A stretch of 64,000 nt of DNA from Escherichia coli O157:H7 (lineage in GTDB: Bacteria > Pseudomonadota > Gammaproteobacteria > Enterobacterales > Enterobacteriaceae). The DNA lies in the NCBI RefSeq assembly GCF_013167455.1, contig NZ_CP038328.1. The stretch is one strand, 5' to 3'. Made by a program: the position numbers. Below, piece by piece: positions 21,001-24,000 of this stretch. Each line of letters starts with the position of its first letter. Within the stretch, counting starts at the first letter, position 1.

Positions 21001-24000
21001 AAGGCGTTCGCTCAGATACTGCGCGTTCTGTGCCAGCGCCTGTCTGTAAAAATCCTCACTGATATCCCCGGTCTGATACTGAGACTGAAGGTCCGCATCC
21101 TTCTGGCGGAAGCTGTCGCGGATCTGCTGCAACTCCCGCATGCGTTCCCTGGCTCGTTCCCCCTGCCCGTACCCCAGCAGTTCAGATTCATTTGATGCAC
21201 GCGCAGCCACATTATCATTCTTCAGTGTCTCTTCCCGGGATCGCAACTGTTCCCGGATTTTTTGCTGGTCAATCAGGGTCGCGTTACGCAGCAGTTCCTG
21301 CTTCTGCATCTCCGTCAGGGTTTTCAGTTCACCCAGCGCTGTCTGGTATTTCAGCTTCGCCAGCTCTGTATTCTGCCCCACCAGTGCCAGTTGCTCTTTC
21401 TGCTGCTTCAGCAGCCGGGAAAAACTGTCTTCCGCTTTTTCCGTCTCTGATTTTCCACCCCGGGATTTGGGTTTATTCGCCTCGTTATTGCGCCAGGCTT
21501 CCAGGGCATTACTGATATAACGTTGTCTCGCCTCCTGATACGGATCACCCACAAAACCGAGGTCATCCGCCGCATACCCCAGTCGGACACGCTCTTTTTC
21601 TTCCCCTTTCAGTCTGGACAGGGCCAGCTCACGCTCTGTTTTTGTCAGGGCACTCTGCTGTTTATCATCCAGGGTGGCCTGCGGCAGCCGTAACGGTACA
21701 TTCACCAGTCCCTGACGCTGCTGAAGCAGTTCATTCCCCAGCCCCAGCAGACGGTTGAATTCCGTATGCTGACCGTTCATAACCAGCATGGACTGGTACA
21801 CCTTATTCTGCTCTGCCGCCTGCTGACGAATTAACGCCACACGACGGTCTTCCAGCCCGGCAAGCACATCCTGAATGGACTGCGCTTTTTCCTGCATCTG
21901 TGCCAGACGGGACTGCTCAACGGCAAGCTGCTCTGTTGCCTGAGAAAGCCCTTCCGTTACGGTCTTCACCGATGTCAGATGGTTTATCATGAATCCGTCA
22001 CCGGTCGTCCAGCCCGGGTTCGCCAGAACATACTGATATCCTGCGATTTTTTCCTGCAGGGATTTCACCCGACTGGCCTGTTCATCAATCAGCCGGTTCT
22101 GCTCTGTCAGCGCCGCCCGTGTTCGTCCTTCATTATCTGAGGCTTCAGGCAAAGACATTGACGGCGTTTTATGCGCGATTTCATCTATCGTCAGTGCATA
22201 CTGGCGCGCAGACTCCCTGGCCTGCTCCTGATTCTGGTACAGCGTGTACCATGCTGCAGCCCCCAGCATCACCAGTCCGGGTACGCCACCAACCAGCCCC
22301 AGCGCACCGCTCATCAGACGTGAGCCCACCGCCGTTGTACTGTTCAGCGCATTCTGGGCGGCGCTTCTGGCAGCAATATTTCTGTTCAGGCGTTCCTGTG
22401 TGGCCGCCAGACGGGCCTCTGCAGCAATCTGCATCTCCGTCCCGCGGGCTGCCGCCACGGCCTGCTGAGCACGGTACACGGCTGCCCTTGCCCGCGCCGT
22501 GGCAATCTGCGTTCCCCTGAACTGTGCTTCCGCCAGTGCAACTTCATTACGTGCAGCCGTCACAAGTCCTGCCGTGGCAGACATCGCTCCGGAGGCCATA
22601 TTGCCAAAGTACCGGGCAACCCCGACGGCAACCAGCGCGCCCACGGCTGTTGCCACATTATCAATCTGTCCGGCAACACCGTTCAGCATGCCGGAGAGCG
22701 TTTTTGTCACCCCGCTGGCCTCATTCGCACCGCCCACCCAGGCCATAAAGGCGTTTTCCACCTTTGTGATACTACTGGAAACCGTTTCCGGCATGGCCGC
22801 ATATTCATCACGTAATATCCCCAGCTGGCTGATTAACGCGGGGACCACTTTATCCGCTGTCAGTTTTCCGTCATCCGCCATTGCCTTCAGATCTTTACGG
22901 GCCACGCCCATACCCGCAGCCAGTGCACGTACGATCCGGTCACCACTTTCATTGACCGAATTAAACTCCTCACCACGCAATACACCCTGCGCCAGCGCCT
23001 GACTGAACTGGGTGATCACCGAGCCCGCCTCTGCCGTACTGGCACCGGAGATTTTCAGCCCTGTCGAAATGGCCTCCGTCACCTTCAGCACATCATCAGC
23101 ACTGTAACCATATTCACGCATCGAGGCAGCCGAACGGGCAAACAGGGCCGCATTATCCGAAAATGCGGTGCCTGTCCGCTGGCTGATATCCATCAGCACT
23201 TTCTGTGATGACGCAAATTCATCGGATGACTGTGATGCCTGTTTCAGACGGGCATTCACGGAGCTCCATTCATCCGCCAGCGAAATCAGGTGTCCGGTGG
23301 CAAAGGCACCGGCAAACGCACCGGTCATTCCGACAGCCGAAGCGCGGATTTCCGTCAACTGGCTGTGCAGCTCAGCCAGAGCCCGGCGCTGCTCCCTGGC
23401 TGCCGCAGCAGCCTGACGTCCGCCATTCTGCAGGGTCCGGTAATATTCACTGCCCATACGGGACGCCCGCTGGATCTCCGACTGGAATGACTGTGAATTT
23501 GCCGAAATTTTGATAATCAGTTCACGTAACGTCGCCATTCACCTTTCTCCGGGCGTAAAAAAACCGCCTCAGCGGTTCTCATCATTCATGACTGTGCTGC
23601 AAGGCTCAGCGCGTCTTCCAGCGCCGCAAACGGATCCACCTCCGGCTTATCCTCATCCTCGCCCCAGCAGAGCATGGCGTCCTTCAGTGCAACATTCATC
23701 CCCTGTGCCCCGAAAACCGCTTTCACGATCTGTGCATTACGGATATCCCCGCGCTCATCACCCAGCGGGGATATCCTGTCGAACTCCATCCACATCATCG
23801 CCTCGCTCGCACTCAGGCTGTGGCGCAGTTCGGATAAGGTGCGCCCCAGACGGAGCGCAAGTCGCATCAGAAAGCGAATTTCCGGGCGGGCTACTTTTTT
23901 CTGGCCGACTCTGCATCAGCGATCAGTTCCAGTGCCTGACGCAGCAACCGGGCATGTACCGGACCATAGACGGCCAGCACCTGCTCACGGTCGTCCGGAG

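Follow-up and report, generated by a model that had tools for sequence, protein, structure and literature searches.

A tail assembly chaperone G/GT frameshift site in an Sp9-like lambdoid prophage of Escherichia coli O157:H7

The G/GT tail assembly system of phage lambda is reportedly the subject of studies by Levin, Hendrix and Casjens in 1993 and by Xu, Hendrix and Duda in 2004, 2013 and 2014. In this phage, tail assembly needs both G and GT, although the virions contain neither; G acts as a coat on the tape measure protein, T brings in the major tail protein, and the two products are present at a G:GT ratio of ~30:1, corresponding to a low-percent efficiency (PMC5009743). The lambda slippery heptamer, G_GGA_AAG, is located 15 nt before the stop codon, its G protein belongs to the Pfam family Phage_TAC_2, and its T protein is 144 aa long. 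In phage HK97, the equivalent pair gp13/gp14 combines the families Phage_TAC_1 and Phage_tail_T, and displays an imperfect heptamer with an A_AAG core (G_GAA_AAG) 18 nt before the G stop, with the moron gp15 placed between T and the tape measure gene. Two pairs have been annotated as -1 frameshift joins, namely HK97 gp14 ('translated due to a -1 frameshift') and Bcep176 69/69'. Outside the phage tail modules, the E. coli dnaX gene (tau/gamma) relies on the heptamer A_AAA_AAG and tRNA-Lys slippage (PMC5009743); an SD-like stimulator lies upstream and a hairpin downstream, shifting amounts to ~50%, and the shifted product is the shorter one.

Frameshifting in this chaperone family has also been catalogued and measured. 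Antonov et al. (2013) assayed two genes from a 'Phage_TAC' cluster (41 genes, HK97-like; PMC3711429) with a GST-MBP reporter in E. coli; a 75-nt cassette yielded 7 ± 0.79% frameshift (PMC3711429 Table S2), and a relative carrying G_GGA_AAG yielded 6% (PMC3711429). In the work of Sharma et al. (2014), cluster A_AAA_AAG_25 comprises 53 genes, has ECs1801 as representative, is listed as a true -1 frameshift ('tail assembly chaperone; [true]'), and was mapped to the GeneTack programmed-frameshift cluster #10 (PMC4066793 supplement); the motif A_AAA_AAG was found among the most shift-prone in E. coli (PMC4066793).

In this work, we analyzed a stretch of 64,000 nt of E. coli O157:H7 (RefSeq assembly GCF_013167455.1, contig NZ_CP038328.1), hereafter the window, which contains an exact match to the 75-nt cassette. 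The G/GT site is therefore already known, as it has been catalogued and frameshifting has been measured for its exact sequence. Our reading, to which we assign a probability of about 95%, is that an Sp9-like lambdoid prophage carries here a G/GT-type site of programmed -1 ribosomal frameshifting for its tail assembly chaperones. Mechanistically it offers nothing new, being a textbook case in which recoding sets a fixed proportion between two assembly chaperones.

Genes G and T and comparison with described systems

The features of the locus are given below in window coordinates.

20296..23538, minus strand: tape measure protein gene (Pfam Phage_HK97_TLTM, 2.5e-90; TMP_3; Tape_meas_lam_C)
23586..23867, minus strand: T-frame ORF in its usual annotation, starting at the ATG (93 aa)
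23846..23920, minus strand: cassette of Antonov et al. (2013), 75 nt, exact match; Phage_TAC cluster, fs-gene 15618692
23868..23894, minus strand: linker VARPEIRFL, 9 codons from the slip site to the annotated T ATG, read in the -1 frame only
23891..23893, minus strand: G stop codon TAG, directly 3' of the heptamer
23891..24265, minus strand: gene G, tail assembly chaperone; ORF of 124 aa (14.0 kDa) by standard decoding
23894..23900, minus strand: slippery heptamer A_AAA_AAG, in frame with G
24280..24996, minus strand: major tail subunit gene (Pfam Phage_TTP_11, Phage_tail_2, Ig_3; 717-nt 'major tail subunit' in RefSeq)

On the minus strand, the 3' end of G reads AGA AAA AAG TAG, exactly as a preliminary description of this DNA had stated. 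The existence of a G/GT site proposed there was confirmed and its position was corrected, since the interval 23880-23897 that had been assigned to it is ~3-6 nt off: it reaches no further into the heptamer than its last 4 nt, and otherwise consists of the stop codon and 11 nt downstream. The proposed -1 slip into the T-frame ORF at 23586-23867 also agrees with the sequence: the 93-aa ORF is present, and the -1 frame from 23894 (GTA GCC CGC CCG GAA ATT CGC TTT CTG ATG CGA CTT...), in which the first two bases of TAG form part of GUA (Val), passes through the T ATG (23867) and remains open as far as 23586, giving an extension of 102 codons past the slip. The nearest stop in the T frame 5' of the heptamer is the TGA at 23918..23916; productive entry into this frame is therefore confined to ~22-25 nt, and within this overlap A_AAA_AAG is the sole motif of the X_XXY_YYZ type.

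Counts of the motif or of its geometry alone do not exceed chance. The window contains AAAAAAG 25 times, versus 14.9 ± 3.8 expected, and an in-frame heptamer followed by a -1 extension of at least 60 codons was found in 14/264 open stretches of the window, counting stretches of at least 80 codons and requiring the heptamer to be in the overlap. The significance of the site derives from homology, conservation and the published measurement, and not from the motif count. The 14 stretches with this geometry were nearly all antisense artefacts.

The product of G, labelled 'phage tail assembly chaperone' in RefSeq, matched Pfam PF06222 (Phage_TAC_1, HK97 gp13-like) over model positions 1-124/124, with E = 1.1e-61 and a score of 206.7 bits that exceeds the gathering threshold of 25 bits, and its ATG at 24265 is preceded by the SD sequence AAGGGGA, with a pairing energy of -8.4 kcal/mol with the anti-SD. 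Phage_TAC_1 was the only Pfam match of G, and no match was obtained to Phage_TAC_2 (PF06894), the family of lambda G proper; the G part is therefore analogous to lambda G and lies outside its sequence family. The T extension matched PF06223 (Phage_tail_T, the lambda T domain) over model positions 1-70/73, with E = 2.5e-19 and 69.9 bits, above the gathering threshold of 25.9 bits. The T-frame ORF is the C-terminal part of a GT fusion of 226 aa and 25.4 kDa. When searched as a whole, the conceptual 226-aa fusion had no matches (0) in NCBIfam and aligned to phrog_14766 over positions 2-224/224 (4e-86); since this match is full-length, the fused G-T architecture corresponds to a recognised family. 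The predicted junction of the fusion reads ...SARKK-VARPEIRFLMRLALRLGRT..., and the predicted junction peptide, ...SARKKVARPEIR, includes KKVARPEIR.

The gene order on the minus strand is major tail, G, T and tape measure, so that the G/T pair is flanked by the major tail gene and the tape measure gene. The upstream neighbour of G, the major tail subunit, is the tail tube protein, with an Ig-like domain at its C-terminus; the downstream neighbour of T is the tape measure protein of 1080 aa, which is followed by an M-like minor tail protein. Of the features considered as criteria for programmed G/GT frameshifts (Xu, Hendrix and Duda 2004), four were observed at this locus, namely the synteny, a -1 overlap with a slippery sequence, a T without initiation signals, and a conserved site.

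Among characterised systems, the window pair is therefore closest to HK97 gp13/gp14, and not to lambda G. The window and HK97 share both protein families, the position between major tail and tape measure, the -1 direction and the Lys AAG codon in the A site; their GT products display 60-62% identity, and the HK97 linker VSTPGVKFLM is homologous to VARPEIRFLM of the window. The two loci differ in that the window carries a perfect heptamer abutting the G stop, and in the moron that follows T in HK97. The resemblance to lambda lies in the logic of the system, the synteny, the -1 heptamer ending in A_AAG and the T domain, as the T proteins of lambda and HK97 match PF06223 as that of the window does. 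Conversely, the G of the window is a Phage_TAC_1 instead of a Phage_TAC_2 protein, its T part comprises 102 aa, and overall identity between the lambda and window GT is 22%; no BLASTP match was obtained between the window T part and lambda T, and their homology is seen through the Pfam profile only. The preliminary description, which had equated the site with the conserved G-T frameshift of long-tailed phages, is thus supported by the families, synteny, conservation and 7% reporter value, and its comparison to lambda G-T holds for the heptamer ending, the frame and the T domain; it requires amendment as regards G, which belongs in type with HK97 gp13 and not with lambda G. With respect to dnaX, the window has the same heptamer, but no stimulator was detected, the measured shift is ~7%, and the shifted product is longer.

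Conservation of the junction and rival explanations

The G-T junction was compared in 12 diverse relatives obtained by tblastn, including lambda and HK97, and in all of them (12/12) T occupies the -1 frame and G carries A_AAG in frame close to its end. Conservation of the slip site, or of this core, extends to relatives with identities as low as ~22-40%. The complete A_AAA_AAG is present in the window, PhiR49_2, the Morganella and Proteus phages and three Burkholderia phages, whereas G_GGA_AAG is found in lambda and mEp506, G_GAA_AAG in HK97 and a Cronobacter phage, and GCA_AAG in a Klebsiella phage. The arrangement A_AAA_AAG_TAG of the window is also found in the PhiR49_2, Morganella and Proteus phage lineages; the UAG abutting the heptamer (A_AAA_AAG_UAG) recurs in four lineages of the chaperone family. 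Among 79 IMG/VR loci, which form groups of 92-100% and ~68% identity, AAAAAAG plus TAG is invariant in 77, with variation in the adjacent bases. The 2/79 exceptions carry indels, one of them being an A7 instead of A8 within the run.

RefSeq and GenBank annotate T as a stand-alone gene. In line with this, a T of 93 aa could be made alone, with translation starting at ATG 23867 through weak initiation or through termination-reinitiation, and the heptamer would then be coincidental. An ATG at the T-start position is indeed conserved in most close relatives; the G stop, which the reinitiation variant would use, lies 24 nt upstream of ATG 23867, and in the Burkholderia phages the G stop overlaps the T ATG (TGATG) in a coupling-like arrangement. 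However, no Shine-Dalgarno sequence was found before ATG 23867 on the basis of anti-SD pairing energy, which amounts to -3.5 kcal/mol and is weaker than the median of -4.2 for random ATGs (156 ATGs in the region), whereas the real starts in the operon range from -6.6 to -12.8 kcal/mol; moreover, lambda T has no Met at the position aligned with the 'T start'. The residues upstream of the T Met are kept as protein in the -1 frame across relatives, following the pattern V-A-x-P-x-x-x-F-L-M with Pro128 and Phe132 at least 90% conserved, and the codons vary at the wobble position (CCG/CCG/CCC/CCT/CCT/CCC for the linker Pro, CTG or TTA for Leu). Such third-position DNA changes combined with protein conservation point therefore to -1-frame translation upstream of the T ATG. 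The full-length PHROG match of the GT fusion, the maintenance of the heptamer or of its A_AAG core across genera, and the frameshift product measured for the 75-nt sequence (PMC3711429) also argue against T being made alone, which we regard as extremely improbable. As for the preliminary description, it had set against its own proposal the case of a T-frame ORF with its own start and RBS and no conserved slippery site in relatives; what was found is a T start lacking an SD, and a site conserved in 12/12 relatives and 77/79 IMG/VR loci. Among close relatives the linker changes are few, with a synonymous versus non-synonymous proportion of ~4:4, and the cross-genus comparison is the useful one.

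Translation through the linker would likewise result from transcriptional slippage, in which RNA polymerase adds one A at the A6 run and standard translation yields the same ...RKKVARP... GT. A one-A insertion gives a protein identical to the product of a -1 ribosomal shift, and the published reporter assay reads the frameshifted product, so ribosomal and transcriptional slippage are not separated by it. E. coli transcripts acquire single-A insertions mainly at A/T homopolymers, with a frequency that grows exponentially as the run lengthens (PMC5574713), and the sister group at 68% identity has a longer A8 run. The run in the window nevertheless consists of 6 A, and programmed transcriptional realignment is known with >7 A (PMC3711429). 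Further, the relatives with homopolymer-free sites (lambda and mEp506, HK97 and the Cronobacter phage, and the Klebsiella phage) keep the frameshift, so that the conserved element is the in-frame A_AAG, a ribosomal signature; and the lambda shift is ribosomal, according to Levin et al. (1993) as cited in PMC5009743. Transcriptional slippage as the source of GT is thus considered very unlikely, and programmed -1 ribosomal frameshifting is retained as the preferred reading.

Proposed course of the ribosomal frameshift

According to the ribosomal reading, most ribosomes translating G would decode ...AGA AAA AAG, encounter UAG and release the 124-aa G, and a minority (~7%, from the reporter assay of the exact sequence) would slip one base back at A_AAA_AAG. 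In this step, the tRNA-Lys in the P site and that in the A site would presumably move together, leaving AAA-AAG and pairing anew with AAA-AAA; E. coli has a single tRNA-Lys (mnm5s2UUU), which pairs better with AAA than with AAG (PMC5009743). GUA would then be decoded in place of UAG, and translation of 102 further codons would produce the 226-aa GT. By analogy with lambda, we infer an assembly role for G and GT in this phage, in which the G parts of both proteins would cover the tape measure protein, the T domain, being rare, would bring in the major tail subunit under a fixed G:GT ratio, and neither protein would be contained in the virion.

Regarding possible stimulators, the folding of 101 nt from the heptamer gave z = -1.76, which is not significant; the consensus fold of 10 relatives reached -3.3 kcal/mol with essentially no covariation, indicating no conserved downstream RNA stimulator among them, and no obvious stimulator was found upstream. 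For the A_AAA_AAG_25 cluster, Sharma et al. (2014) reported a ΔΔG of ~0.02 (PMC4066793 supplement). Since no stimulator was found, the efficiency appears to rest on the heptamer and perhaps on the adjacent stop; such absence agrees with shifting of the lambda type, which is low-level and stimulator-free.

A more specific contribution of the context is conceivable, although we consider it rather unlikely: the abutting UAG may act as a 'shifty stop', or transcriptional slippage may contribute appreciably in the A8 sister lineage. As a 'shifty stop', the UAG would be subject to slow RF1 termination, giving the peptidyl-tRNA-Lys time for the slip. If this were the case, the stop could replace the RNA structure needed at other -1 sites, and could make the output of GT sensitive to the activity of the release factor.

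Origin of the prophage and annotation of GT

The window from 365 to 44281 (~44 kb) displays 98-99% identity to prophage Sp9 of E. coli O157:H7 Sakai, where ECs1801/ECs1802 constitute the locus orthologous to the window G/T. G is the ortholog of Sakai ECs_1801; 2 aa distinguish the two proteins, and both loci have the same slip site and linker. Compared to Sakai Sp9, the window prophage differs in that its K/I region is present and its J is interrupted, with no difference at the slip site; the prophage may be defective on account of J, and the site may not now serve virion production here. Towards the end of the 5' part of the split J lies a heptamer GGGTTTC, which was considered as a second frameshift site and rejected, as the interruption is a 1-nt deletion relative to intact J.

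An 851-bp segment spanning G-T is 100% identical to E. coli O157:H7 chromosomes. Among complete E. coli genomes, 1,245 of 5,426 contain it, as do 92 phage records, the majority of them from Stx-converting phages. In the E. coli and phage records, T appears as a separate gene of 282 nt (210 nt in Sakai) which is never joined to G; as the join is missing in RefSeq and GenBank, the 226-aa GT is absent from the protein databases. The value of the site lies mainly in annotation, given that this tail module is very common in O157:H7 and in Stx phages.

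Prophage identity and effector cargo

Positions 365..44281 are a lambdoid prophage of the Sp9 type from E. coli O157:H7, and this region displays 98-99% identity to Sp9 of strain Sakai. About 2 kb between genes L and J (about 17590..19600) are kept in the window and are not present in Sp9. The type III secretion effector cargo comprises nleH and nleF homologues along with an nleA-like ORF, as judged from synteny with Sakai ECs_1812-1818, on which the following two assignments are also based:

9362..10687, nleA-like ORF
3485..5023, ISEc8-type transposase ORF

Two tRNA genes are also carried, both on the minus strand (39970..40046 and 40127..40202):

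one of the pair, minus strand, tRNA-Arg (tct)
the other, minus strand, CAT-anticodon tRNA

The latter was identified as tRNA-Met by ARAGORN, but its Sakai ortholog is annotated as ileZ (tRNA-Ile, cat). Rare-codon tRNA pairs of this kind are typical of the late regions of Stx and lambdoid prophages.

Slip-site variants among relatives

In one of the IMG/VR relatives (L071, IMGVR_UViG_2531839448_000005, locus about 1361), the slippery run at the G-T junction has A7 in place of A8, which sends G into a third frame; therefore, the slip-site homopolymer is also a hotspot of genomic indels or sequencing errors. In the Burkholderia phages Bcep176, vB_SR1 and phiBt-TXDOH (L011-L013, about 696..740), A_AAA_AAG lies 30-33 nt upstream of the G stop, and thus both frames are translated over approximately 10 codons. 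The G stop of these phages also overlaps the conserved T-frame Met (TGATG or ATGA), and this layout could permit translational coupling as well.

Structural genes with disrupted, repetitive or apparently misnamed products

14117..17589, minus strand, J gene, present as a pair of overlapping ORFs (17589..16414 and 16537..14117)
29113..26612, minus strand, portal-like ORF of 833 aa
24280..24996, minus strand, major tail subunit with a C-terminal Ig-like domain

The host-specificity gene J occupies two ORFs because of a 1-nt deletion near 16481, recognized by comparison with the intact 3492-nt J of NZ_CP066753 (GTGGCC-TACACC in the window, GTGGCCGTACACC in the intact gene). This deletion rules out a programmed shift, despite a GGGTTTC heptamer close by, and it points to a prophage that is defective or to an error in sequencing.

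Within the portal-like ORF, a 162-nt (54-aa) unit is repeated 3.7 times in tandem with 97% identity (26994..27586), and the repeat includes …DDVRPMLEQMVKEAVSHIPVPRDGRDYDPDVLQKAVNDAVA-IPVPADGKSITP…. In NZ_CP066753 the ortholog is listed as a 'frameshifted' pseudogene, and the Sakai annotation gives a 2580-nt portal gene, so the copy number probably differs among strains.

The Ig-like domain of the major tail subunit, at residues about 172-250 of the long ORF, is matched by the Pfam models Ig_3, Ig_2 and I-set; the names 'Hoc-like head decoration' and 'fibritin', given to this protein in some phage records, look like misannotations.
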